A stretch of 62,285 nucleotides of DNA, the filler included. It is 6 parts of 6 records of this genome, joined end to end, with 100 filler letters (N's around TTAATTAATTAA, not from the genome) between each part and the next. Parts side by side here need not be neighbours in the genome. Positions count along the whole stretch, not along the records: positions 7,186 to 24,054 come from DRR723986_4015; 5 more parts are not named here. The stretch is one strand, 5' to 3'. A program made the position numbers and the translations under genes. The notes under the pieces were generated by a model. That model searched no databases. It saw nothing but the letters and a program-made list of their open reading frames with translations, and was not told the origin of the DNA. This document shows positions 5,785 through 25,042 of this stretch, piece by piece; positions within the stretch are counted from its first letter, which is position 1, and the number at the start of each line of letters is the position of its first letter.

Positions 5785-6966
5785 TCACACCCTTTCCAAG
5801 GCCTGCACCAAATCTGCCAGCAAATCATCGGCATCTTCCAACCCAACGCTAAGCCGCACCAAGCCATCGGAAATGCCCAACAGATCTTTTTGCGCCTGTG
5901 GCAGGCGCTGGTGGGTGGTGGTGGCTGGATGGGTGGCGATCGATTTTGCATCGGCGAAGTTGTTGGAAATGGTAAACAATTCCAAGGCATTCAAAAAGCG
6001 GAAACAGGCCGCCTTGCCACCCTTTACCTCGATCGTAAACACCGTGCCGGCCGCCGGCGCCTGCGACAGGGCCAATGCCTGTTGCGGATGCGCCTGATGG
6101 GTTGGATAGCGCAATGCCTGCAAGGCAGGGTGCCCCATCAGCCCATCGGCCAGTTTCATCACCGTATCGGCCTGCGCGCGCACCCGCAGTTCCAGCGTTT
6201 CCATCGCTTTCAGATGCGTCCAGGCGGCAAACGGGTTCATCGCCCCGCCTGTGTGCTTCATATAGGCCTCGATCGGCCCACGGATCAGCGCGGTTGGGCC
6301 GCAAATCGCACCGCCCAACATGCGCCCCTGCCCATCGACATGTTTGGTTGTGGAAATCACCGCAATATCTGCGCCACAGGCGCGCGCATAGGAAAAGACC
6401 GGCGTGGCCATGGCATCATCGACAACCACCAAGGCCCCCACCGCATGGGCCAGCGCGCAGACCGCGCGCAAATCGATCACCTCTAGCGTCGGGTTCGAGA
6501 TCGATTCCAAAAACACCAGCCGCGTATCGGGGCGCAGCGCCCCCTGCCAGGCCTGCAGATCGCGCCCATCAACCAGCGTCACCTCAACCCCGAAGCGCGC
6601 CAAGATCTCTTCCAGCACATAAAGGCACGAGCCAAACAGCGCCCGCGAGGCCACCACGTGATCGCCCGCCTTCAGCAACGACATCAGCGCCCCATTTACC
6701 GCAGCCATCCCCGAGGCACAGGCAAACGCATCTTCAAACCCCAGATAGGTGGCAATGCGATCTTCAAACATGCGCATCGTGGGGTTGCCATAGCGGGCAT
6801 AAATAAACTCATCTGCGCCCGCCTTTTCAAACCGTTGTTCGGCCTGCTCGGCACTGTCGTATACAAAGCCTTGGGTCAGAAAAACCGCCTCGCTGACCTC
6901 GCCCCATTGGCTGCGGCGGGTGCCGCTATGCACCAGTTTTGTGCGTGCTTTCCACTCGTTCGTCAT
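5785..6966 (-). CDS. metZ: O-succinylhomoserine sulfhydrylase
   Basis: Cys/Met PLP family motifs YARYGNPT, ASGMAAV, STTKHVDGQGR, HPATTTH, RLSVGLED; SAM riboswitch upstream. Confidence 0.93.
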   Translation of the reverse strand: MTNEWKARTKLVHSGTRRSQWGEVSEAVFLTQGFVYDSAEQAEQRFEKAGADEFIYARYGNPTMRMFEDRIATYLGFEDAFACASGMAAVNGALMSLLKAGDHVVASRALFGSCLYVLEEILARFGVEVTLVDGRDLQAWQGALRPDTRLVFLESISNPTLEVIDLRAVCALAHAVGALVVVDDAMATPVFSYARACGADIAVISTTKHVDGQGRMLGGAICGPTALIRGPIEAYMKHTGGAMNPFAAWTHLKAMETLELRVRAQADTVMKLADGLMGHPALQALRYPTHQAHPQQALALSQAPAAGTVFTIEVKGGKAACFRFLNALELFTISNNFADAKSIATHPATTTHQRLPQAQKDLLGISDGLVRLSVGLEDADDLLADLVQALERV

Positions 6967-7793: not shown

Positions 7794-8834
7794 ATGAGCA
7801 ACGGCAAAGAGCAAAGCACACAGGATAAGATCATCGAATGTGCAGAGGCACATTTTGATGCGCGGGTGAAAAATATCTCTGCGCCGGGCGGTGAAGGGCG
7901 GTCCAGCTTTCGCCTTTCTGTGGCCGGTAGGTCGGTGATCGCAACTCTGAGGCCCAACTTTCGACGCACCCATCTGGAGGCGCATGTGCTTGAGCAGTTG
8001 AGCGCCCATAGCGATGATCTGCCTCAATGCCTTGGTGTGGTCGGAGAGATCATGTTTCAATCCGATGTGGGCGACCGCCGGCTCAACGTCGAGATCGCCG
8101 AAGTGACGCCCAGCACACGGCTTGGTCTCGCGCATGACGCAGTTTCCGCGATCTTTCGCATCCAATCAGCAGCACGGAAAACCCAGCTGCATGAAATGAT
8201 GCCGCATCTGGGCACCAACGACGACTGGATTTTGAACTTTGTCGATGCCATTGATTTTCTGCGCGACCTGGGCGGCGGCATCTCGGACAAGTTTGACCGC
8301 GAGGCGGCCTATGAACGGGTTGCGGTCGCTGGCACACAGTTTGTGAAATGGGATTGCCGGTCCGGCAACGCAGCCATCGACAGCAAGGACAAACTGCGCT
8401 GGTTCGATTTCGAATATGCAGGTCTGCGCCACGGTGCAGAGGACATCGCTTGGCTGATCGGCGATGAGGCATGGCCGATCCGGCCGCAGGACATGGTTGA
8501 TATCGTGATCGATACCTTTGACCCCGAATGCGGTTACGAGCTGGATGATTACCTTGATTACCTATCGGTATATCTGACGTTCCACGCGGTGCAGCGACTA
8601 AAGCTGATCAGCAAGGAAAGCCGCAAGCGCGGGTGGTTGAGCAAGGAAAAGATCCGCAAATATGACGATGCCGGCGTACATCCCGAGTTTGCCGCCCAGA
8701 TTTGCAGAGTTGGCGCATATTTCTCGGCGCAATCGCCGTTAACGGCACCGTTGTCGCGGAATTTCCTCGCTGCGCTGCACGGATTTATCCAGATCAACAA
8801 CCAAGAAGATCAGCGGAACTTGCGCAGGGCTTAA
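7794..8834 (+). CDS. APH/choline-kinase-like phosphotransferase (atypical)
   Basis: Brenner-like loop FVKWDCRSGN, metal loop WFDFEYAG, then EDIAWL; Gly-rich PGGEGRSS near the N-terminus. Confidence 0.65.
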   Translation: MSNGKEQSTQDKIIECAEAHFDARVKNISAPGGEGRSSFRLSVAGRSVIATLRPNFRRTHLEAHVLEQLSAHSDDLPQCLGVVGEIMFQSDVGDRRLNVEIAEVTPSTRLGLAHDAVSAIFRIQSAARKTQLHEMMPHLGTNDDWILNFVDAIDFLRDLGGGISDKFDREAAYERVAVAGTQFVKWDCRSGNAAIDSKDKLRWFDFEYAGLRHGAEDIAWLIGDEAWPIRPQDMVDIVIDTFDPECGYELDDYLDYLSVYLTFHAVQRLKLISKESRKRGWLSKEKIRKYDDAGVHPEFAAQICRVGAYFSAQSPLTAPLSRNFLAALHGFIQINNQEDQRNLRRA

Positions 8835-10121: not shown

Positions 10122-11885
10122 TCATTTCGCCCGTTCGGCCCTCAACATCTCGACCATCTGATCCCGCATCACAAATTTCTGCGGCTTTCCGGTGATTGTC
10201 ATTGGCAATTCATCGACCACACGGATGTGCCGCGGCACTTTGAAATGGGCAATCTGGCCCTGACAGAACTGGCGCAGTGCATCCGGTGTCAGACTTGCAC
10301 CATCCGCCGCAACAACCCATGCACAGACCTCTTCGCCCAGTCGGTTATCCGGCACACCAAAAACCTGCGCCTCGCGGACTTGCGGATGGGAATATAGAAA
10401 TTCTTCGATCTCGCGGGGATAGATGTTTTCGCCGCCCCGGATGATCATGTCTTTGACACGTCCGGTGATGGTGCAGAACCCGTCTTTGTCAAACACGGCC
10501 AGATCACCGGTGTGCATCCAACCATCGCGGATGGCTTCGGCGCTGCGCCCCGGATCGTCCCAATAGCCTTTCATCACGGAATAGCCGCGCGTACACAGCT
10601 CGCCCTGCGTCCCTGCGGGCACGATCTGCCCGTTCTCATCGACAATCTTGACCTCAAGATGCGGATGCACCCGGCCAACTGTTTCGCAACGCTGGGTCAC
10701 CGGATCATCGACAAAGCTTTGGAAAGACACCGGCGCGGTTTCGGTCATGCCATAGCAGATCGTGACCTCATCCATGTGCATCACAGAATTGACCGCCTTC
10801 ATCACATCCACCGGGCATGGCGCCCCGGCCATGACCCCTGTGCGCATCGCCGACAGATCGCGCGGCGTTGTCTCAAGATCTTGCAGCATCGCCACAAACA
10901 TCGTCGGCACACCGTAAAGCGCGGTGCAGCGTTCCCGTGCCAGCGCATCAAGGGTTTGCGCCGCATCAAATCCCTCTCCGGGAAAGACCATGGCCGCGCC
11001 TTTGCTGACGGCGCCCAGAACGCCCATGACCATGCCAAAGCAATGATACAGCGGCACCGGAATGGCCAATCTGTCATTTTCGGTCAGATTGATCCTGTCG
11101 GTCACAAACCGCGCGTTGTTCACCACGTTGTAGTGAGACAGCGTGGCCCCCTTGGGCTGTCCGGTCGTGCCGGAGGTGAACTGGATATTGATCGCATCAT
11201 CAGGCTGCAACGTGGCGCCGATCTGTGGCAGGCGCAGTTGCTGGGCCGGGCCACCCAGTTCGGACAGCGTATCAAAGGACCAAATGCCTTGGTCGGCAGG
11301 TGCCTCTCCCATCACGATGACATGCCGCAGATGCGGCAGCTTGGCGGCATGCAGTTTGCCCCGTTCCGCTGTTGCCAACTCGGGCGCGAGGGTCTGGATC
11401 ATGCCCAGATAGTCTGAACTTTTGAAAGAGGGGGCCAGCACCAGCGCCTTGCAGCCGACTTTGTTCAGCGCATATTCCAGTTCGGACAACCGGTAAGCCG
11501 GATTGATATTGACCAAGACCGCGCCGATCCGTGCTGTGGCAAATTGTGTAAGCACCCATTCCAAACGGTTCGGCGACCAGATGCCAACCCTGTCCCCCTT
11601 TTCCAGACCCAACGCCAGCAGCCCCGAGGCCAGTGCATCCACAGCGCGATCCAGATCATAATAGCTGAGCGTGCGACCGGGAAACACCAGCGCATCCCTT
11701 GGGCCGTACCGCGCCACGGCATCCTGCAACAACTGGGGGATGGTGGCGAAAGCCAGCGGCGGATGTGCGGGGCCCTGGACATAGGATTTGCCATCGCGGG
11801 GTGTCAGGTCGGCTTGGTCTGCGCTGCCGTCACTCACCCCGAACTTCTGGATCTGGTCTGCAATGCTTTCGTTCAAAATGGTCAT
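10122..11885 (-). CDS. AMP-forming acyl-CoA synthetase
   Basis: QFTSGTTGQPKG, YGMTET, WMHTGD, GRVKDMIIRGGENIYPREIE, PMTITGKPQK; GGGAGG RBS before MTILNE. Confidence 0.93.
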   Translation of the reverse strand: MTILNESIADQIQKFGVSDGSADQADLTPRDGKSYVQGPAHPPLAFATIPQLLQDAVARYGPRDALVFPGRTLSYYDLDRAVDALASGLLALGLEKGDRVGIWSPNRLEWVLTQFATARIGAVLVNINPAYRLSELEYALNKVGCKALVLAPSFKSSDYLGMIQTLAPELATAERGKLHAAKLPHLRHVIVMGEAPADQGIWSFDTLSELGGPAQQLRLPQIGATLQPDDAINIQFTSGTTGQPKGATLSHYNVVNNARFVTDRINLTENDRLAIPVPLYHCFGMVMGVLGAVSKGAAMVFPGEGFDAAQTLDALARERCTALYGVPTMFVAMLQDLETTPRDLSAMRTGVMAGAPCPVDVMKAVNSVMHMDEVTICYGMTETAPVSFQSFVDDPVTQRCETVGRVHPHLEVKIVDENGQIVPAGTQGELCTRGYSVMKGYWDDPGRSAEAIRDGWMHTGDLAVFDKDGFCTITGRVKDMIIRGGENIYPREIEEFLYSHPQVREAQVFGVPDNRLGEEVCAWVVAADGASLTPDALRQFCQGQIAHFKVPRHIRVVDELPMTITGKPQKFVMRDQMVEMLRAERAK

Positions 11886-11901: not shown

Positions 11902-14301
11902 TTACATGTCGCGCCAGTCGCCTGATTGTTCAAACGCATGGGCGGCTTGGTAAATCTTCATTTCCCCATAGTTCGGGCCAACCAGTTGCATCCCGATTGG
12001 CAAGCCCTCGCTCAGCCCGCAAGGAATGCTCATCGCGGGCAAGCCGCCGTTGAAGGGGGCCGTATTAGGCACCATCTCAAAGGCACGCTGGACATACAAG
12101 CTAAGCGAGCAATCGGCGGGCGGATGTTCTTGCGGTTTGATCGGCAGGGTCGGCATCAACAAAAGGTCATATTGTTGAAGCGCGGCGAGATAGCGTTCGT
12201 TGACCTTGCGCATGATGTTCTGCGCCTTGCCGTAGAAGCGGCCGCGATACTGACGCTGGAAATGCTCGCCCACAAACATGCAGGCCTTCAGAGAATGGCT
12301 CAGCTCATCCGCCCTGCCCTTCCACTGCGCCATGTGGTCGGTCATCGACGGCAGGAACAGACCGCGATAATTGGTGCCGGCGGAATTGCCCCACATCATC
12401 CCGTCTTGCAGACCTTCCAATGTGATCGCGGTCCAGGCGTCCATGGCTGTGTGATGCTCCGGCACTGAGATCGTATCGACCCTTGCGCCCAATTCACGGA
12501 ACCGTTCGGCGGCGGCCATGACTTTTTGTTCCACGTCACTTTCGGAGTTGGGATGCCCGAAACCTTCTGTCAGGATGGCGATCCGCATGCCATGAACACC
12601 GCGCCCGAGACTTTCGGTATAGCTGTAGGTTTTGGGTTTGTACTGGCGCGGGTCCAGCCCGTCTTCGCCTGCCAGAACCTCCAGCAATAGGGCATTGTCG
12701 GCAACGTTGTTGGTCACCGGGCCGAGGTGATCAATGGTTTGTTCAATCGGCATCGCGCCTGTGTAGGGCACCAACCCATGGGTGGGTTTCATGCCGTAGA
12801 CGCCGCAATTGGATGATGGAATGCGAATGGATCCGCCCTGATCGCCCGCGATGGCCATATCGACCTCTCCCGCTGCAACCAGTGCCGCCGAGCCACCCGA
12901 AGACCCGCCCGCCATATAACCGCGTTTCCACGGGTTGTGGATTGGTCCTTTGGCGTTGGTGTGCGATCCGCCCGAAAGGCAAAAGTTCTCGCAATGCGCT
13001 TTGCCTGCGATCAATGCACCTGCATCCAGCATACGGGTTACGATGGTGGCGTCGATCTCGGGTGTGTAACCCTCCATGATCGAGGAACCATTCATCATCG
13101 GAACGCCAGCAAGACAGATCGTGTCTTTCAACGCAATGCGTTTGCCGCGCAGTTTGCCATCCGGTGCGCCGCGCACTTCGGTCTTGACGTACCATGCGTT
13201 CAGCGGATTCTCCGTCTGGTCGGGAAAATACCCCGGACTGCGCGGATAGCGGACCTGCGGCAGGTTATCGGGCAAAGCGTCAAGCCGGTCATAGGCTTGC
13301 ATGTAAGGCTCGATAATCTCGGTGTATTCGGCCAGATCTTCGTCAGACAGGCTCATCCCGAACCGATCCGCCATGGCGCGCATCTGGGACAATGTGGGGC
13401 GTTTGATGGTCATGGCTGTCACCGTGGGGCTGTTGGGTTGCGAATGAAGCGGCGGCGATGGCTTTGCGGCGCTGTCTTTTGGGAACGTCTGCGGGCGGCG
13501 ACTTGCGGGCGGCGCGGCGAGCGCGCCTGCGGGCGGTTCGGCCCGTGTGCCAGAGGTTTGGCGGGTGCCACGCGCCGCGCCGAACCCGAGGAATTGATCC
13601 ACTTTGGCCTGATCCGACAGTTCCGCCCGCGTCAGCGTGCCGGTGATCCGGCCCCGTTCCAGCACCAGAACCCGGTCGGACAGATCGGCGATAAAGTCAA
13701 AGTTCTGCTCGACCAGCAGGATCGACAACCCGCGCTGTTCGCGCAGGTGCAGCAGCGTTTCGGCCATCTCTTCGATGATCGAAGGCTGGATGCCTTCGGT
13801 CGGCTCGTCCAGCAGCAGGAAATCGGGATCCCCCATCAGGCAGCGGGCCAACGCCAAAAGCTGTTGTTCACCGCCCGACAATGCCCCCCCTTCGCGATCC
13901 AGTAGGCGTTGCAGGCGTGGGAAGTCAGCCAATACCGCGTCCATCACTTCGGCCTCGGACCCGCCGGCGTGATCGTGCCAGGCAAAGCGCAGATTGTCGC
14001 GCACGGAAAGCTGCGGAAAGATCCCGCGCCCCTGCGGTACATAGCCGATGCCCATCTGCCCGCGTACATTGGGCGGTGTTCGGGTGATATCGGTTTGGTC
14101 ATATCGGACCTGCCCGGCGGTGGCTGGCAGGAACCCCATCAATGTCTTGAGCAAGGTTGTCTTGCCCATACCGTTGTGGCCCAGCACGCCGACTACCTCA
14201 TTTTCGGCCACGTCCAGATCAATGCCATGCAGGATCGGCACACGGCCATAGCCACCCGATACCCCCTTGGCAGACATCAATATTTCGCGCTCTTCGGTCA
14301 T
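11902..14301 (-). CDS. Fusion: UrtE/LivF-like ABC ATPase + amidase-signature amidase
   Basis: One ORF: GHNGMGKT, LSGGEQQ, LLLDEP, Pro/Ala/Ser linker, then amidase with ALKD, CENFC, GGSSGGS, GDQGGSIRIPS. Confidence 0.88.
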   Translation of the reverse strand: MTEEREILMSAKGVSGGYGRVPILHGIDLDVAENEVVGVLGHNGMGKTTLLKTLMGFLPATAGQVRYDQTDITRTPPNVRGQMGIGYVPQGRGIFPQLSVRDNLRFAWHDHAGGSEAEVMDAVLADFPRLQRLLDREGGALSGGEQQLLALARCLMGDPDFLLLDEPTEGIQPSIIEEMAETLLHLREQRGLSILLVEQNFDFIADLSDRVLVLERGRITGTLTRAELSDQAKVDQFLGFGAARGTRQTSGTRAEPPAGALAAPPASRRPQTFPKDSAAKPSPPLHSQPNSPTVTAMTIKRPTLSQMRAMADRFGMSLSDEDLAEYTEIIEPYMQAYDRLDALPDNLPQVRYPRSPGYFPDQTENPLNAWYVKTEVRGAPDGKLRGKRIALKDTICLAGVPMMNGSSIMEGYTPEIDATIVTRMLDAGALIAGKAHCENFCLSGGSHTNAKGPIHNPWKRGYMAGGSSGGSAALVAAGEVDMAIAGDQGGSIRIPSSNCGVYGMKPTHGLVPYTGAMPIEQTIDHLGPVTNNVADNALLLEVLAGEDGLDPRQYKPKTYSYTESLGRGVHGMRIAILTEGFGHPNSESDVEQKVMAAAERFRELGARVDTISVPEHHTAMDAWTAITLEGLQDGMMWGNSAGTNYRGLFLPSMTDHMAQWKGRADELSHSLKACMFVGEHFQRQYRGRFYGKAQNIMRKVNERYLAALQQYDLLLMPTLPIKPQEHPPADCSLSLYVQRAFEMVPNTAPFNGGLPAMSIPCGLSEGLPIGMQLVGPNYGEMKIYQAAHAFEQSGDWRDM

Positions 14302-14302
14302 C

Positions 14303-15019
14303 TTATGCCTTCTTTCCAAGATAGACGGCGCGGACCGTCGGATCAGACATCACGCGGTCAACGTGGTCTTCCATCAACACGGCTCCTTGATGGAAAACCG
14401 TGACGGTCTCGGCAATGGAGCGGATGAACTGCATGTCATGTTCGACAATCACCACTGCGGCGCTGCGGGTCAGTTCGTGGATGATTTCGGTCATCCGGTC
14501 CACGTCGTTCGCGCTCATTCCCGCGGCGGGTTCGTCCAGCAGCACAAGCCATGGATCGGCCACTGCGACCAATCCCAGTTCCACCCGCTGCCTCTCACCA
14601 TGGGCCAATTGCCCCAGTTCGGTGCGGGCAATTCCGCCCAAGGCAAGCCTGTCGATGATGCTATCAGTGCGGGCCTTTGCCTCTGCCGCGTCATGAAAAC
14701 GGCGGGCGGAGAGCCAGATGTTTTCATGCACATTCAGCGCGTCCATCACATTGGGCGTCTGGGTTTTGATCCCAACCCCAAGCGAGGCAATCTGGTGGGG
14801 TTGCCAGCCCGTGACGTCCTGCCCGCGCATGAACACCTGCCCCTCGCTTGGGGTCAGAAGGCCGGTCACGCATTTAAAGAACGTGGATTTGCCTGCGCCG
14901 TTGGGGCCGATCAGGCAGCGCAATTCGCGTGCCTTGAGCGAGAAATTCACATTGTCGCTGGCCGTGACCCCGCCAAAGCGCATGGTCAGCCCATGGGTTT
15001 CCAATACAGTTTCAGCCAT
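14303..15019 (-). CDS. ABC ATP-binding protein (UrtD/LivG-like)
   Basis: GPNGAGKS, LAHGERQ, LLDEPAAG, VEHDM; start overlaps the upstream stop. Confidence 0.92.
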   Translation of the reverse strand: MAETVLETHGLTMRFGGVTASDNVNFSLKARELRCLIGPNGAGKSTFFKCVTGLLTPSEGQVFMRGQDVTGWQPHQIASLGVGIKTQTPNVMDALNVHENIWLSARRFHDAAEAKARTDSIIDRLALGGIARTELGQLAHGERQRVELGLVAVADPWLVLLDEPAAGMSANDVDRMTEIIHELTRSAAVVIVEHDMQFIRSIAETVTVFHQGAVLMEDHVDRVMSDPTVRAVYLGKKA

Positions 15020-16040
15020 GTCTTGCTTTCCGTCTTTGCCGCGCAAGTGGTCTGCGCCGGGCGCGGCCAAAGCTGGCCTTCCAGAGGGCGGCCACCGCAG
15101 GCACCAGACCTTTGGGCAGGAACAGCACGAACAGCACGAGGATCAGCCCGGTGATCAAGGTGTTGTCGATCAGGCTTTGCTGGCCCAGAACAAATTTCAG
15201 ATAGGCCAACCCTGCCGCGCCAAGGATCGGCCCAAGCCGCGTGCCAAGCCCGCCGACAATGCACCAGATGATAATCTCGGCCGATTGGCCCAGCGAGAAC
15301 AGCCCCGGCGTGACGATCTCGCCCCAGTTCGCAAAAAGTGCCCCGGCCAGCCCGGCGATGGCCGCGCCGGTGGCAAACAGCACAGTTTTGCGGGCGGCCA
15401 CGTCATAGCCCATCAGCGCCATGCGGGTCTCGTTCTCGCGGATACCGATAGCGACCCGACCAAAGGACGAGCGCAGCAACCATGTGACCAGCAGGAAGAC
15501 AATCACCAGCGCGACGGCGCAGAAATAGAAATAGGGGTCGCCCCAGATATAGGCATCCGGATTGCCCGGCACGTTGAGGGTCTGGAACCCCGGAATACCG
15601 TTGTAACCGCCCAGTCGCGCGTTGCCGATCACGTATTGAGGGCCTGCGGTGGAGTTCACAAACTTGAAAAGGATCAGCGTCACAACGAGGGTGATCACCC
15701 CCAGATAGACATCCGTCAGCCGCCCGTAGAACATGAGCGCGCCCAGCACAGCCGCAAAGATCAGCGGCACCAGCACCGCCAAGAGCATTGGCACCGTGCT
15801 TTCCCCAAAATTGATCGCCGCGATGGCATAGGTGTAAGCGCCAAGGCCAAAGAACGCCGCCTGACCAAAACACAAGATTCCGCCGAAGCCCCAAATCAGA
15901 CCAAGGCTCAGCCCCAGCATGCCGTAGATCACCAGCACCGTCAGCGTATAGGTTGCGATCACCATCGGCAGAAGCCAGATCAGCAGCGCCGATACGATCA
16001 ACGTGGCGATGATCTCTTTTCCCAATGACCGCTCCATCAC
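15012..16040 (-). CDS. ABC permease (UrtC/LivM-like)
   Basis: GLIWGFGGILCFGQAAFFGLGAY; SSFGRVAIGIRENETR. Confidence 0.9.
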   Translation of the reverse strand: MMERSLGKEIIATLIVSALLIWLLPMVIATYTLTVLVIYGMLGLSLGLIWGFGGILCFGQAAFFGLGAYTYAIAAINFGESTVPMLLAVLVPLIFAAVLGALMFYGRLTDVYLGVITLVVTLILFKFVNSTAGPQYVIGNARLGGYNGIPGFQTLNVPGNPDAYIWGDPYFYFCAVALVIVFLLVTWLLRSSFGRVAIGIRENETRMALMGYDVAARKTVLFATGAAIAGLAGALFANWGEIVTPGLFSLGQSAEIIIWCIVGGLGTRLGPILGAAGLAYLKFVLGQQSLIDNTLITGLILVLFVLFLPKGLVPAVAALWKASFGRARRRPLARQRRKARHG

Positions 16041-16903
16041 AGTTTACCTTTGAAAAAGCGGCCTGTGATCCCTTGCGGCATGAGCCGCAGCAAGACGACA
16101 GCCGCAACAAGCAGCGCCACCTCACCGATCACCGGCGAGACCGCAAAGGTGAACACTTGATTGACGACGCCAAAGGAGGTGGCCGAACTCAGCAAACCCG
16201 CGATCAACGAAGGACCGCCAGCGATCACGGTGATGAAAGCTTTGGCGATGTAAGCGCCGCCCGATGTCGGCACCAAGCCAACCAGCGGCGCAAGCACCGC
16301 GCCCGCCAATCCCGACAGGGCAGAGCCGCAAAAAAATGTCGCCATATAGATGCGGTCCGGGCTGTAGCCGAGGGCAGCGGCCATATCAGCGCGCTGCATC
16401 GTGCCGCGTGCAATCAGCCCCGCGCGGGTGCCGCGCAACACCGCCAGCATCGCGATCACCAGAACGGCAGCCACCACAATGATAAAGAAGTTATAGCCGC
16501 TGATCTGATAGTCCCCCACGGCAAAACCGGGGATCGGGGTGGAGATGCCGGTGGTGGTATTGCCAAAGATCATCGTGGCCAGACCAATGAACACAAGGCT
16601 GAGACCCCATGTCGCCAACATCGTATCGACCAGTCGCCCGTAAAGGTGCCGGATCACCAATCGTTCCACAATTAGCCCGATCAGCCCCACAACCAAGGGC
16701 GCAATCACCAGCATCGCAACAAAGACATTCACGCCCAGCCCCACGGCGCTGATGGTCGTATAACCGCCCAGCATCATGAACTCGCCATGCGCCAGATTGA
16801 TGACCTTCATCATGCCAAAAACCACGGCCAATCCGGCGCTGATCAGCACCAGCGAGGCAACCGCGTAGAGCACTTCAACCGCTATGACAAAACTGAGATC
16901 CAT
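16037..16903 (-). CDS. ABC permease (UrtB/LivH-like)
   Basis: GLAVVFGMMKVINLAHGEF; LATWGLSL. Confidence 0.9.
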   Translation of the reverse strand: MDLSFVIAVEVLYAVASLVLISAGLAVVFGMMKVINLAHGEFMMLGGYTTISAVGLGVNVFVAMLVIAPLVVGLIGLIVERLVIRHLYGRLVDTMLATWGLSLVFIGLATMIFGNTTTGISTPIPGFAVGDYQISGYNFFIIVVAAVLVIAMLAVLRGTRAGLIARGTMQRADMAAALGYSPDRIYMATFFCGSALSGLAGAVLAPLVGLVPTSGGAYIAKAFITVIAGGPSLIAGLLSSATSFGVVNQVFTFAVSPVIGEVALLVAAVVLLRLMPQGITGRFFKGKL

Positions 16904-16975: not shown

Positions 16976-18196
16976 TTAGATTTCGATTTCGTACTGCGTG
17001 TTGTCATTTGGGTTTGCGCTGAGGTCACAAACCGCTTGGGTGTCCACCGGTTGCCGCTGTGGCAGGGTTTCGATCACCTTCATCTGCTGGTCCTGCATCT
17101 GCATCAGATGCACATCCAGAACCGCGTGGTGGGTTTTGGGATCAACCGTCACCTTGCCGCCCGGCCCCATGATGGAAATGCCGGTTTCCAAGGCTTTGAT
17201 GATCGCCATCCGGTCAAGTGATCCGGCTTGGCGCACCCCTTCGGCCCAGGTTTTGATACCGTGGTAATGCGATACGGCAATCTCGTGCATCGACTGATCG
17301 CCATCAAACATCGCGGCCCATTTTTCCTTGAACTGGGCGTTCTCCGGCGTGTCCAGTTCCTGGCTGTAGTTGTAGGCACACATGATGCCGTTGCCCTCTT
17401 CTGGGGTCAGAACCTTGTGTTCGTTGCCCACGCCCAGGGTGGTCGAGGCCAGTGCTATCTTGTCTTTCATGCCGGCAGCGGCCCACTGGCGGAAGAAGGA
17501 CAGATGCGCACCGCCGACAAGCGGGGCAATCACCAGATCGGGGGCGGCGGTCTGGACCTTGGCGATGGTGGAGCCAAAGTCGCTCACATCCAATGGGAAG
17601 AAATCCGTGCCGACCACTTCGCCGCCGTTGTCCGCCACAAATTTCTGGATCCAACGCGCGGTGATCTGGCCGTAGTTATAGTCGGCAGCAAGGATATAGA
17701 CCTTCTTGCCGGAATTTTTCATCGCGAAAGGCACCAATGCCTCAACCTGCTGGGCCGGGGTGACACCGTTGATAAAGATGTTCCGGTCGCATACGCCGCC
17801 CTCGTAGAGGACGTTGTAGAAATACAGTGTTTTGGTCTTGCGCATGGTTTGGCGGATCGCCTCGCGGGAGGCGGACAGGATGCCGCCCTGCACCACATCC
17901 ACCTTGTCCTGGCGGGTCAGTTGTTGACCATATTGCGAATAAAGCGCCATGTCCGATTGGGTGTCATAGGCCGTGACCTCAACCTGACGGCCCAGCAGAC
18001 CGCCCGCTTCGTTGATCTCAGCGACGGCCATGCGCATGGCCTGATCCATCGGTTTGCCATAGGCGTCAAAGGGGCCGGATGCGTCCAGGATGGAGCCAAG
18101 TTTGATGGTGCCATCCGCAAACACAGCTGTAGGCAGCATCGCGGTTGTGGTCAGGGCGGCCGTGCGGCCAAGGAAATCTCTTCTGTTCAGAGACAT
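16976..18196 (-). CDS. Urea/short-chain amide ABC substrate-binding protein (UrtA/FmdD-like), Tat signal
   Basis: NRRDFL twin-arginine leader; SASREAIR, YEGG, ADYNYG motifs; hairpin at 16935-16959 follows the gene. Confidence 0.9.
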   Translation of the reverse strand: MSLNRRDFLGRTAALTTTAMLPTAVFADGTIKLGSILDASGPFDAYGKPMDQAMRMAVAEINEAGGLLGRQVEVTAYDTQSDMALYSQYGQQLTRQDKVDVVQGGILSASREAIRQTMRKTKTLYFYNVLYEGGVCDRNIFINGVTPAQQVEALVPFAMKNSGKKVYILAADYNYGQITARWIQKFVADNGGEVVGTDFFPLDVSDFGSTIAKVQTAAPDLVIAPLVGGAHLSFFRQWAAAGMKDKIALASTTLGVGNEHKVLTPEEGNGIMCAYNYSQELDTPENAQFKEKWAAMFDGDQSMHEIAVSHYHGIKTWAEGVRQAGSLDRMAIIKALETGISIMGPGGKVTVDPKTHHAVLDVHLMQMQDQQMKVIETLPQRQPVDTQAVCDLSANPNDNTQYEIEI

Positions 18197-18247: not shown

Positions 18248-19873
18248 TCACTCTTTGTCTTTGGGTTTCGGATCGTCTTTTGCCTTTATCCGGTTGGCGT
18301 AATCCGCCGTCCGACCTGCGATGTTGGGGTCGAAATCAAGGCCTATTTCATCGCCCATCTGTTTCATCGCGGGCAGGCGGACGGCCATGCCAAGGATCTG
18401 GTCCATTGCCGCACCAAAAGCTCCGTCGACACCCTCTGTCTGGCCAGTGCCGCCGCTGCCCAGACCGCCGATCTGGTTGATGCGGATCGAGTCGATCTTT
18501 TCGACGGGCTTCATCATCTGGGTCATAATCTCGGGCATCCGGTCGAGCTTGCGCTCTTCGAGGCGCATGCGGATCACTGCATCGCTCAGCGTGTTTTCCG
18601 CCGTGTTCAGCGCGGCCTGACCTGCGGCCTGCGCTTCCATGGCTTCTTTATCGGCGCTGGCGGCAGCGGTTTTGGCGGCGGCGTCGGCTTGGGCACGGGC
18701 CAGCAGGGTGCTGACATCGCTTTGCACGCGCGCGTCTTCGAGTTCGATGTCGCGCTCTTGCTTGAGCTTGGCAATTTCCCGTTCGCGTTGGGCGATGGCG
18801 CGTTCTTTCTGGGCCTGCACATTTTCGGCGGCGAGGATCACCTGAATGCGGGCTTCCTCCTCGTCCGCCTTGGATTTTGCCTCTTTGGTGCGGGCCTGGG
18901 ACAGCTTGATGTTGTTGGCAATCTTTGCCTCTTCCAGCTCCATCAATGCGGTCATCTCGGCTTTGCGCAACGCCTCGTCATTGGCAACCTGTGCGGATTT
19001 GGTCAGGCGTTCCTCGGCGATTCGGACAGCCTCTGACGCGCGGTGCGCCTCGGCACGGGTCTGGGCAGAGCGGCTTTCGGCTTCGGCCTCAAGGCGGGCT
19101 AGGTGTTCTTGCTGGGCAATCTCGGCCTCACGTTCCGCCTTTTGCAGCTCAATCTGCCGTTGATGCTGTGACAGGCGGTGCTCACGCACGGCCACTTCGG
19201 TTGAGGTCTCGATGGCGATCCGCGCCTTGCGTTCTTCGGCCACCAGCTCGGCCAAGCGCCGCATGCCCGTGGCGTTGAAGGCATTGTTTTCGTCGCGGCC
19301 CGACAGATCACTTTGATCCACCGAAATCAGCGAGGCGGACACCAGTGCCAGCCCAAGCCGGTCAGCATGATCCGCAACCATGTCCGCCACATCCTTGGTA
19401 AATTCGGCGCGGTTGAGATGGATGTCTGTCAGCGCACGGGCCGCTGCGGCGCTGTGTACCGCATTGATCAAAGCACCGGAGAGCACCTCTGCAATGGCAT
19501 CACCGCTGCGGGCGATCCGATGACCAAAGGCTTGCGCTGCCGTTGCAATACTGTCCGTGTCAGGGGCGACGCGCAGTTCAAACTCCATTGCGATATCGGC
19601 CCGCAATTGATCGGCGGTCAGCACTGCCTCACGGCCACTGCGGGCAATCTCGGTGGCTGCGGTCTGCATGGAGACCCGTTGCACCTGATGCAGGATCGGC
19701 AGGGCAATGCAGCCCCCGTCGGTCAACACACGTCGTCCTCCCATGCCGGTCCGAACCAAGGCCGTTTCTAGCGTCGCCTTGGCGTAGAAACGCTGAAGAA
19801 ACCAGATGCCGACCAACAGCACGACGATAAAAATGACAACAGCTAGCGCCCAATACAAAGTAAATTCCCCCAC
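18248..19873 (-). CDS. Flotillin family (SPFH, YqiK-like) membrane protein
   Basis: N-terminal TM, ALVRTGMGG SPFH start, NNAFNATGMRRL, long EA-rich coiled coil, KPVEKIDSIRI C-terminal motif. Confidence 0.85.
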   Translation of the reverse strand: MGEFTLYWALAVVIFIVVLLVGIWFLQRFYAKATLETALVRTGMGGRRVLTDGGCIALPILHQVQRVSMQTAATEIARSGREAVLTADQLRADIAMEFELRVAPDTDSIATAAQAFGHRIARSGDAIAEVLSGALINAVHSAAAARALTDIHLNRAEFTKDVADMVADHADRLGLALVSASLISVDQSDLSGRDENNAFNATGMRRLAELVAEERKARIAIETSTEVAVREHRLSQHQRQIELQKAEREAEIAQQEHLARLEAEAESRSAQTRAEAHRASEAVRIAEERLTKSAQVANDEALRKAEMTALMELEEAKIANNIKLSQARTKEAKSKADEEEARIQVILAAENVQAQKERAIAQREREIAKLKQERDIELEDARVQSDVSTLLARAQADAAAKTAAASADKEAMEAQAAGQAALNTAENTLSDAVIRMRLEERKLDRMPEIMTQMMKPVEKIDSIRINQIGGLGSGGTGQTEGVDGAFGAAMDQILGMAVRLPAMKQMGDEIGLDFDPNIAGRTADYANRIKAKDDPKPKDKE

Positions 19874-19988: not shown

Positions 19989-21083
19989 TTACAAAAGCTT
20001 GAAGTCGCAGAATTGAACGCCATCGGCCCGCGCCATGTAAACAGATGGCCGCCTCAGAGCGGGCGAATGTGTGAAGTTGCGTCCGCTGGCATAGCTGACA
20101 GGCAGTTGGTCGCGGGTTGATTTTTGCTGCCAGACATCACCGAACTGGCCAATCAATCCGGCAAGGTAGTGCAGCCCCTCATAGGTCGATTGCCCCAGGG
20201 CATTCAGCGCCGGTGCGGTGTCGCCGTGCATCCCGTAATACCGTTCCTTGAAGGCGGCATTTTCGTCGTTGGAAATAGAGCCAAAATACGAAGACACTGA
20301 AAACAGACGCTCCAGATTGCCCCTGCCACAGGCCATCAGCCCATTCTCTTCCAGCGCGGTGGACAGCCGGACGATGTTTTTGTGAAGCCCGCGCCGCCCG
20401 AAGGTGCGATTGAACATCACCGCATCCTGTCCCACCAAAGACACCAGTACCGCATCCGCGCCCGAGGCTTCGAGTTGCGTCACCAGACCGCTCATATTCG
20501 ACAGGCCAAACGGCACGTAGCATTCCATCGCCAGATCAACATTCATCTGTCTGAGGCAGGATTTCGCATAATCATGTGAACTGCGCGGCCAGACATAATC
20601 ATTGCCGATCAATGCCCATTTGCGGGGCTTGAACCGCTTTTGCATGAACATCATTGCAGGGCCGAGTTGTTCTTTTGGGGTTTCGCCAATGGCAAAGAGA
20701 CCCGCCGTGGTTTCACCGCCCTCATAGAGCGGCGTATAGATATAAGGAATGCGCTGGCGCACGACCTTGGACAGACGTTGCCGGATCGCGCTGAGGTGCA
20801 TGCCGACAATCGCGTCGATTGCACCCAGATCAATCAGGTCGTTTACGATCTCTTCGATCGGCTCCGCGGCCTCAACTGCGGCGTCAATCATGATCAGTTG
20901 CACCTTGCGCCCGTCGATCCCGTCCGCCTTGTTCAGCTCGGCCACGGCAACCTGTGCGCTGGAGATGCAGGACGGTGCCCAGATGCCCGCCGCCCCGCAA
21001 AGCGGGATCAATAGCGCAACGCGATAGACGCCACTTGCGTGAAACTGTCCATTCTCGCGGAAGTCAGCGAGTTCCATCGGCAT
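19989..21083 (-). CDS. AmiC-like cytoplasmic amide-sensing PBP1 protein (start uncertain)
   Basis: VGMHLSAIRQ, YTPLYEGGE, IGNDYVWPR motifs; no evident signal peptide. Confidence 0.82.
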   Translation of the reverse strand: MPMELADFRENGQFHASGVYRVALLIPLCGAAGIWAPSCISSAQVAVAELNKADGIDGRKVQLIMIDAAVEAAEPIEEIVNDLIDLGAIDAIVGMHLSAIRQRLSKVVRQRIPYIYTPLYEGGETTAGLFAIGETPKEQLGPAMMFMQKRFKPRKWALIGNDYVWPRSSHDYAKSCLRQMNVDLAMECYVPFGLSNMSGLVTQLEASGADAVLVSLVGQDAVMFNRTFGRRGLHKNIVRLSTALEENGLMACGRGNLERLFSVSSYFGSISNDENAAFKERYYGMHGDTAPALNALGQSTYEGLHYLAGLIGQFGDVWQQKSTRDQLPVSYASGRNFTHSPALRRPSVYMARADGVQFCDFKLL

Positions 21084-21210
21084 GGTCACGTCGTGTCGCA
21101 GCGTCCCTCCCCCTCTGCGATGTGCGCTTGATGCAAGCTTGGTGGCACATTGCAATTGAATTTGCTTTCCAAGTCAACTAAATTCAGGTCAGTGATCATT
21201 GGTGATAAAC

Positions 21211-21636
21211 ATGTCTGAGCAGACCAGTTCGTTTGAAACGCATATTTCCTATGCCGTTGCGGCCGCGCATCGTTCGGTCAATCAACGGATGACGGCGCAG
21301 CTGAAAAAGCACGGGATTCAGATCGAAGCCTGGCGCGTGATGGAATGTCTGGATGCGGGCGAGCGGCTGACCATGGGCGCGCTGGCCAGCAAGGCGTTGA
21401 TCAACCCGCCAACGCTCAGCAAACTGGTGGATCGCATGGTTTCCGATGGTCTGGTTCATCGCCAAATCTCGCAGAGCGACCAACGCGAAATCAATCTGCT
21501 GCTGACCCATTTGGGGCGCATTCGGATGCTCGACATTCGCAAGGATGTCGAGGAACAAGACGGCGCGTTAAACGGATTGCTTGAGACAGAAGACGGGGCG
21601 CTGCTGCTCAAGCTGCTGTCGAAGATTACGGTCTGA
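21211..21636 (+). CDS. MarR family transcriptional regulator
   Basis: PPTLSKLVDRMVSDGLVHR...DQR...LTHLG winged HTH. Confidence 0.92.
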   Translation: MSEQTSSFETHISYAVAAAHRSVNQRMTAQLKKHGIQIEAWRVMECLDAGERLTMGALASKALINPPTLSKLVDRMVSDGLVHRQISQSDQREINLLLTHLGRIRMLDIRKDVEEQDGALNGLLETEDGALLLKLLSKITV

Positions 21637-24054: not shown

Positions 24055-24154
24055 NNNNNNNNNNNNNNNNNNNNNNNNNNNNNNNNNNNNNNNNNNNNTT
24101 AATTAATTAANNNNNNNNNNNNNNNNNNNNNNNNNNNNNNNNNNNNNNNNNNNN

Positions 24155-25042
<888 letters not shown>

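Follow-up and report, generated by a model that had tools for sequence, protein, structure and literature searches.

An importer ATPase fused in frame to a Rhodococcus-type amidase in marine bacteria, with a conserved, probable start site at the junction

ATP-binding cassette (ABC) importers are thought to deliver their substrate in free form to the cytoplasm. Importers of the HAAT class, such as UrtABCDE and LivFGHMJ, are built from five parts, encoded in the order binding protein, two permeases and two ATPases, and the two ATPases of one importer are different proteins. In other importers (MalK, MetN and, with CBS domains, OpuA/OpuC) the nucleotide-binding domain (NBD) bears an extra domain at its C-terminus; each of these is a small regulator that binds a ligand and packs against the NBD dimer. 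The gene described here has its addition at the same end, but that addition is a 503-amino acid (aa) catalytic enzyme on a tether predicted to be disordered. It is found on the minus strand at positions 11902..14301 of the window, i.e., the whole stretch of 62,285 nucleotides that was analyzed, and encodes 799 aa comprising an UrtE/LivF-type ABC ATPase, a linker and an amidase-signature amidase. In this protein, the motor subunit of the importer bears the enzyme for the first catabolic step. Each part by itself is an unremarkable member of its family; what is new is the combination, an importer NBD that carries a catabolic enzyme, with the ancestral start site of that enzyme inside the gene. 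Literature searches turned up no description of a characterized NBD-amidase fusion, and an earlier note on this DNA knew of none.

Among solved structures, the amidase part is closest to that of an enzyme from Rhodococcus sp. N-771 (RhAmidase; 3A1K/3A1I, E 9e-136, aa 301-792). Enzymes of the PRK07235/RhAmidase class are expected to be homodimers that hydrolyze aliphatic and aromatic primary amides, and RhAmidase is encoded beside a nitrile hydratase; no nitrile hydratase is present among the annotated genes of the block in which the fusion lies. The two enzymes align over their full length, including the stretch that corresponds to the N-terminal helical domain of RhAmidase, and a CX3C motif stands at the same aligned place, reading CEDLC in RhAmidase and CENFC in the fusion. 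The Ser-cisSer-Lys triad is aligned as well: K392, S467 and S491 of the fusion fall on Lys96, Ser171 and Ser195 of 3A1K, which the review PMC11732141 names as the catalytic residues of RhAmidase. The difference is that RhAmidase is a free soluble dimer (PMC11732141), whereas the amidase of the window follows a transporter ATPase within one polypeptide.

Amidases, amide sensors and importers are known to occur together in operons. The fusion is part of a conserved nine-gene block, consisting of genes for a MarR-family regulator, an AmiC-like protein, a flotillin, a binding protein exported by the twin-arginine translocation (Tat) pathway, two permeases, an UrtD-like ATPase, the fusion and an acyl-CoA ligase. 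It shares the five-part build and the gene order of UrtABCDE and LivFGHMJ, but its parts score below the cut-offs of these families, the urea-binding residues of UrtA are replaced and the second ATPase carries an enzyme. With the Pseudomonas amiEBCRS operon and with acetamidase/formamidase operons that contain urt-like genes, the block has in common that an AmiC-like protein, here a putative ligand sensor, an amidase and an amide-type ABC importer are encoded together. Unfused amiE/fmdA operons, which often include ABC transporter genes, are described in part of PMC13209695. In these known operons the amidase is a separate gene (a nitrilase-superfamily AmiE or an FmdA), accompanied by the AmiR antiterminator, whereas in the window an amidase-signature enzyme is fused to the NBD and MarR, flotillin and acyl-CoA ligase genes are added. 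No AmiR/ANTAR gene is seen beside the AmiC-like and MarR genes or within the block.

The reading frame of the fused gene is uninterrupted from 14319 to 11902 on the minus strand, while the plus-strand translation of the interval contains many stops. The longest open reading frame (ORF) opens at a TTG at 14319, but the start is likely the ATG at 14301, one base past the TAA of the upstream UrtD/LivG-like ATPase gene, with the stop at 11902 giving the product of 799 aa. The NBD (aa 1-240; 13582..14301, minus strand) matches the Pfam family ABC_tran (PF00005, aa 24-168, E 6e-32) and the NCBIfam UrtE model TIGR03410 (aa 12-238, model positions 4-228 of 230); at 262 bits the latter match lies below the curated cut-off of 285.8 for an UrtE equivalog. 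The amidase domain (aa 297-799; 11902..13413, minus strand) matches the family Amidase (PF01425, aa 375-781, E 2e-87), and the Rhodococcus-type model PRK07235 (NF005565) covers aa 297-798 with model positions 1-505 of 506, at 755 bits against a cut-off of 545. Since both the UrtE and the PRK07235 model are covered nearly end to end, NBD and amidase are both complete. The linker between them (aa 241-296; 13414..13581, minus strand) is 56 aa long, and 34 of these residues are Pro, Ala, Ser or Thr.

The catalytic machinery of both halves is intact. In an alignment of 38 sequences, the Walker A motif (G41-T49, GHNGMGKT), Q90, the signature LSGGEQ (141-146) and the Walker B motif with its glutamate (D165-E166, LLLDEP) are invariant in the NBD. 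The place of the H-loop reads VEQN, where UrtD has VEHD; VEQN is usual at this place in LivF/UrtE. In the amidase part K392, S467-S468, S491 and C437-E438-x-x-C441 are invariant, with S467 in a GGSSGGS stretch, and with PF01425 and the Ser-cisSer-Lys triad both present the enzyme belongs to the amidase signature family. The main points of the earlier note are thereby borne out, its coordinates included, with the gene on the minus strand: it had described 11902..14301 as an in-frame fusion of about 800 aa, with a complete NBD, a Pro/Ala/Ser/Thr linker of about 55 aa and a complete amidase with Lys/Ser/Ser motifs and CENFC, related to the CX3C amidases of the Rhodococcus nitrile pathway.

A fusion seen in one record might be an assembly or sequencing artefact, in which two genes are joined by a lost stop codon or an indel in that record only. 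Nothing was found in favor of this explanation; it is refuted because the frame recurs unchanged in numerous genomes and metagenomes of independent origin and in complete plasmids, and its probability is virtually nil. The protein was searched against a collection of 5.8 billion proteins. The best 120 matches, which were the ones considered, are all 779-809 aa long, all contain both Pfam domains and are 79-98% identical. They come from Sulfitobacter (98%, S. mediterraneus), Planktotalea, Chachezhania, Shimia, Ruegeria, Phaeobacter, Nioella, Roseibium and Rhizobiaceae, among others, and the source databases label them mostly as plain 'amidase'. Among species-representative genomes, 268 stretches encode a relative, and the best 80 of these form the basis of all locus counts given here. 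NBD and amidase lie in a single stop-free frame in 79 of the 80 loci; the lone exception (L052) is a contig of 1527 bases that is cut inside the fused gene. The linker is also crossed, without a single gap, by contigs from three independent metagenome studies (X1 record 5, X3 records 13 and 14, X7 record 30), and the sole indel seen is a compensated pair at 13389/13393 in one X4 contig, inside the amidase part. A complete Sulfitobacter plasmid has the gene annotated by the NCBI pipeline (PGAP) as one coding sequence of 793 aa, 'amidase'.

The fused proteins fall into two clades, with about 80-99% (clade 1) and about 60% (clade 2) identity. This is seen in a search with the amidase part through 301 sampled genomes from the family of locus L001, of which 30 matched at E <= 1e-100. 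A first group of 12 places is 82-99% identical, with open frames of 792-853 aa and one exception (G175, 622 aa). A second group, also of 12 places, is 59-62% identical, with open frames of 794-858 aa, except in G228 (508 aa) and G217 (contig end). The third group consists of eight places with 42-56% identity and open frames of 506-552 aa. In total, 11 intact fused copies of clade 1 and 10 of clade 2 occur in this sample. The gene order in clade 2 is the same, i.e., flotillin, binding protein, two permeases, UrtD-like gene, fusion and acyl-CoA ligase. At a coarser level, in 1.84 billion proteins clustered at 50%, the best 150 matches include one full-length fused representative (P0122) plus fragments that cross the junction, and the nearest unfused amidases among them are 51-54% identical. 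Altogether, this is a genuine in-frame fusion that is old and widely kept in marine bacteria. One clade-1 copy (L082, G175:C21) has a frame change at about 5889-6173, somewhere after NBD residue 208 and before the linker. As the UrtC-like gene of that locus is likewise in two pieces, this is either a decaying copy or an error-prone assembly.

The carriers are Alphaproteobacteria of several orders and metagenome-assembled genomes (MAGs) of Gammaproteobacteria. Three plasmids of the Sulfitobacter group carry the fused gene or block, which fits some horizontal spread. Copies with 63-86% identity over the whole protein occur under the labels Halieaceae, Pseudomonas marincola (a MAG), Arenicellales, Poriferihabitaceae and other Gammaproteobacteria (L009, L029, L050, L058, L078, L079). 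They point to horizontal transfer or, for MAGs, to mis-binning. One of these Gammaproteobacteria MAG copies (L078, 8801-11443) has the longest linker seen, 137 aa, and an amidase part 77% identical to that of the window.

The state before the fusion is preserved in relatives with separate genes. In five unfused relatives (L085, L086, L096, L097, L098) the UrtE protein ends with ...GMSxx*, where the fused proteins read ...FLGFGAAR. The UrtE stop is followed by 1-48 in-frame codons, a canonical GAGGAG or AAGGAG and the ATG of the amidase, so the loss of one or two stop codons would yield the fusion. The fusion thus looks like the result of stop-codon loss in UrtE, with the linker as the former in-frame intergenic spacer. 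A quick tree of the amidase part was built from 47 of the 110 available rows, with clade 1 thinned to every fifth locus and the cut locus L052 dropped. Each fused clade obtains a Shimodaira-Hasegawa-like approximate likelihood ratio (SH-aLRT) of 100. Both fused clades and the unfused amidase of L081 join at 84, and the unfused clade of L086, L096 and L097 is the next branch, at 89. A single origin of the fusion is possible, and the quick tree does not decide between one and two events. L081 (G228:C12, 2874-6326) is an unfused amidase, 61% identical to the amidase part of the window, which is accompanied by MarR and AmiC-like genes only, with no transporter nearby; given its place in the tree beside the two fused clades, it may have been un-fused secondarily or be a relic.

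The linker evolves fast. Its length ranges from 38 to 137 aa across the loci and it can be aligned at its two ends only. In an AlphaFold2 (AF2) model, used for the linker only as the whole-protein model is moderate in the amidase part (mean predicted local distance difference test, pLDDT, 67.8), the NBD reaches pLDDT values of mostly 80-90, while aa 239-296 stay below 50 and have no secondary structure. The linker is thus predicted to be disordered. The end of the linker before the amidase methionine is conserved, but as RNA and not as protein. The earlier note had correctly placed an internal Met at 13413; this ATG (13411..13413, minus strand) corresponds to position 1 of the PRK07235 model and is an ATG in 78 of 80 sequences. 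The note's further statement, that no clear Shine-Dalgarno (SD) sequence precedes it, does not hold, as an SD-like GGTGA is present 5 nt upstream (13419..13423, minus strand). GGTGA pairs with ...UCACC... of the 16S rRNA tail. Position -10, a third codon position, is G in 79 of 80 sequences by way of 13 different codons, whereas third positions inside the linker are G in only 28%. Position -6 is A in all 80, encoding Thr, Asn or Ser. The Val codon before the ATG is GTG in 69/80, compared with 42% of the Val codons (1406 of 3387) in the genes overall. GGTGA itself is exactly kept in 64/80 sequences and some SD-like word in 77/80. In clade 2 the word is GA(A/G)AGGAT, and its Arg codon is AGG in 10/10 sequences, although AGG is rare in the remainder of these genes (20 of 409 Arg codons).

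Two further properties of the mRNA were calculated for this place. The energy of the duplex with the 16S tail is -7.4 kcal/mol before the internal ATG of the window, with -3.5 to -5.0 before the starts of the UrtB-like, UrtC-like and UrtD-like genes and the fusion, and -9.5 before the binding protein gene. Predicted mRNA structure has a sharp minimum centered on the internal ATG (mean z 2.26, above 1 in 76/80). At a distance of 30 nt the mean z is 1.10 on the upstream and 0.86 on the downstream side, and around the first codon of the whole gene it is 1.31. Functional initiation sites usually show just such features, namely a conserved SD-like word, an ATG and little mRNA structure, which can be read here as selection for a free amidase. 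Hence, the old ribosome-binding site and ATG of the amidase are probably kept under selection, and a free amidase is probably made alongside the fusion.

The same observations can be turned into a different explanation. The fusion would then be real in the DNA, but the working forms would be separate proteins, with most of the amidase produced from the internal start, or with the linker cleaved by proteases; read-through would be a tolerated by-product or would keep the proteins in step, and tethering would do nothing. The conserved SD and ATG with the structure minimum, the hypervariable and disordered linker and the fact that unfused relatives work with the same gene order all fit this. Yet the frame has been kept open through 38-137 aa of fast-changing linker in 79/80 loci and in both clades, at an identity of about 60%. 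Neutral read-through should gather stops and frameshifts, and the only broken copy seen is L082. This explanation is judged unlikely. It has also to be considered that the amidase domain could be mainly a regulatory sensor of the transporter, like the C-terminal domains of MetN and MalK, switching the ATPase in response to cytoplasmic amide or product. C-terminal extensions of importer NBDs are commonly regulatory, and a separate free amidase could take care of catalysis. Against a sensor speak the retention of all catalytic residues and of the full PRK07235 model, the long, disordered and length-variable linker, which is poorly suited to pass allosteric signals, and the probable AmiC-like sensor already present in the block. 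A regulatory role of this kind is very unlikely.

The substrate class can be approached through the binding protein (16976..18196, minus strand; Peripla_BP_5/6, Tat signal RRDFL), which is present in 76/80 loci and is of urea/amide type. Its relatives in the PDB are 8TG1, which is the nearest, UrtA and AmiC. It scores below the cut-offs of the urea models (TIGR03407, 239 vs. 492.75; TIGR03669, 350 vs. 494.8). The urea-binding residues of Prochlorococcus UrtA were mapped onto the binding proteins of the 76 loci through an alignment with 8HIC. In the portion of PMC10392092 drawn on here, these residues are W120, S122, Y141, Q144, E146, Y190, N246 and S274. Asn246 binds one urea nitrogen, Trp120 positions it and Gln144 binds both nitrogens; Trp120 and Asn246 are needed for urea binding and are called strictly conserved (PMC10392092, same portion). 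Here, W120 is replaced by Ile, N246 by Val and S274 by Gly in 76/76 loci, and Q144 by Leu in 56/76, while S122, Y141, E146 and Y190 are retained. The full set of conserved urea-binding residues that marks UrtABCDE is thus not present. Hydrophobic residues at the Trp120 and Asn246 places in all loci, and at the Gln144 place in 56/76, fit a primary amide that bears an apolar group and speak against urea. The type of enzyme together with the acyl-CoA ligase that follows it suggests a route from amide to acid plus ammonia and further to acyl-CoA.

These data also bear on the reading as an importer of urea or a urea-derived compound, in which the amidase would act on a urea-pathway compound such as allophanate or biuret. 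In its favor, Urt models are the best NCBIfam matches of all five transporter parts and the structures nearest to the binding protein include those of UrtA. However, every one of these matches lies under its curated cut-off, the Trp120 and Asn246 equivalents are Ile and Val throughout, the amidase is far below the cut-offs of the allophanate hydrolase and AtzE models while above that of PRK07235, and an acyl-CoA ligase has no role in urea use. Urea import was rejected on the binding-site residues and is scarcely credible. A primary amide with a hydrophobic side would be the substrate class suggested by the sequences.

The presence of the other block genes was counted in the 80 loci. The partner NBD is the UrtD/LivG-like ATPase (14303..15019, minus strand; TIGR03411 at 232 bits, below its cut-off of 304), found in 77/80 loci, with its start inferred as ATG 15019. 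The two permeases, both PF02653, are UrtC-like (15012..16040, minus strand; TIGR03727 and TIGR03408 below cut-offs; 77/80) and UrtB-like (16037..16903, minus strand; TIGR03622 below cut-off; 76/80). Downstream, the acyl-CoA ligase (AMP-binding; 10122..11885, minus strand; 77/80; start inferred) opens about 16 nt past the stop of the fusion. Its AMP-binding domains are clear (PF00501 and PF13193), and its match to PRK12583, at 793 bits, stays under the cut-off of 832. On the other side, the AmiC-like binding-protein homolog (19989..21083, minus strand; Peripla_BP_6; start read as ATG 21083; 67/80) has no visible signal peptide and matches the acetamide sensor AmiC (1PEA, E 2e-15), and is a probable cytoplasmic amide sensor by its sequence. 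The MarR-family regulator (21199..21636, plus strand; PF01047, E 7e-12; 66/80) lies next to the AmiC-like gene and is divergent from the block. The flotillin, with SPFH and Flot domains by Pfam (18248..19873, minus strand), is encoded immediately before the transporter genes and keeps this position in 74/80 loci and in clade 2; such a fixed neighbor gives a bacterial flotillin a candidate client.

From these elements, a working model can be proposed. The Tat-exported binding protein would hand an amide to the two permeases, driven by the pair of UrtD-like and UrtE-like ATPases. The amidase tied to one of these ATPases at the cytoplasmic exit would cleave the amide to ammonia and a carboxylate, and the acyl-CoA ligase of the next gene would activate the resulting acid. 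The AmiC-like sensor and the MarR regulator would control the block. As HAAT importers use two different ATPases, there would be one tethered amidase per transporter. The gene would yield both the tethered enzyme and a free amidase, and since the homologous RhAmidase is dimeric, the free amidase could pair with the tethered enzyme. A dimer may thereby be completed at the transporter; alternatively, a dimer of tethered enzymes may link two transporters. Tethering could channel substrate or regulate transport, as the earlier note suggested. The tether is long and variable, which argues for proximity rather than a fixed channel. A three-chain complex prediction, with the amidase placed onto the UrtD/UrtE ATPase pair, scored 0.00 and says nothing either way. 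Taken as a whole, the account of a genuine old fusion in an amide uptake and use operon, with a stop-loss origin, a retained internal start and two products, is the best explanation and is considered probable. A more far-reaching version is a membrane 'import metabolon', in which tethered and free amidase form a dimer at the transporter exit, the amide is hydrolyzed on arrival and flotillin serves as scaffold; this is put forward tentatively, as a possibility rather than an expectation.

A number of observations weigh against this account. The acyl-CoA ligase and the transporter parts are all under curated family cut-offs, and Gln144 is kept in 20 of the 76 binding proteins. One copy of the fused gene (L082) is frameshifted. 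Regarding the origin, the join of the fused clades has the SH-aLRT of 84 given above, with an unfused amidase (L081) among them. As for the internal start, 9.6% of the in-frame sites in the gene carry SD-like words that pair as strongly, so SD strength by itself was rejected as an argument and the case rests on conservation; the 80 sequences behind these statistics are related and not independent. In addition, the scarcity of mRNA structure is due in part to the C/A-rich linker, with z of 0.9-1.1 at -30 and -60.

Many marine Alpha- and Gammaproteobacteria, as well as plasmids, carry the fusion, in an architecture that is hidden in databases under the name 'amidase'. It offers a natural system for testing if a scarce or leaky substrate is caught faster by a tethered enzyme. 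As small amides can pass through membranes, splitting them at the exit would retain their carbon and nitrogen. An evolutionary series is available as well, from split genes through stop loss to a fused gene that retains the old start site. If true, the import metabolon would be a bacterial ABC importer equipped with a catabolic enzyme of its own, and a single fused gene would specify two proteins.

Outside the block, two neighbors are shared with a single locus: the neighboring LacI gene and a 346-aa ORF are common to the window and L001 only, among the 80 loci. The 346-aa ORF (7794-8834, plus strand) has only a weak match to APH phosphotransferases (E 0.008). Another ORF of 311 aa (24107-25042, minus strand) has biotin carboxylase N-terminal and ATP-grasp domains only; it could be a truncated carboxylase gene or the first part of a longer one.

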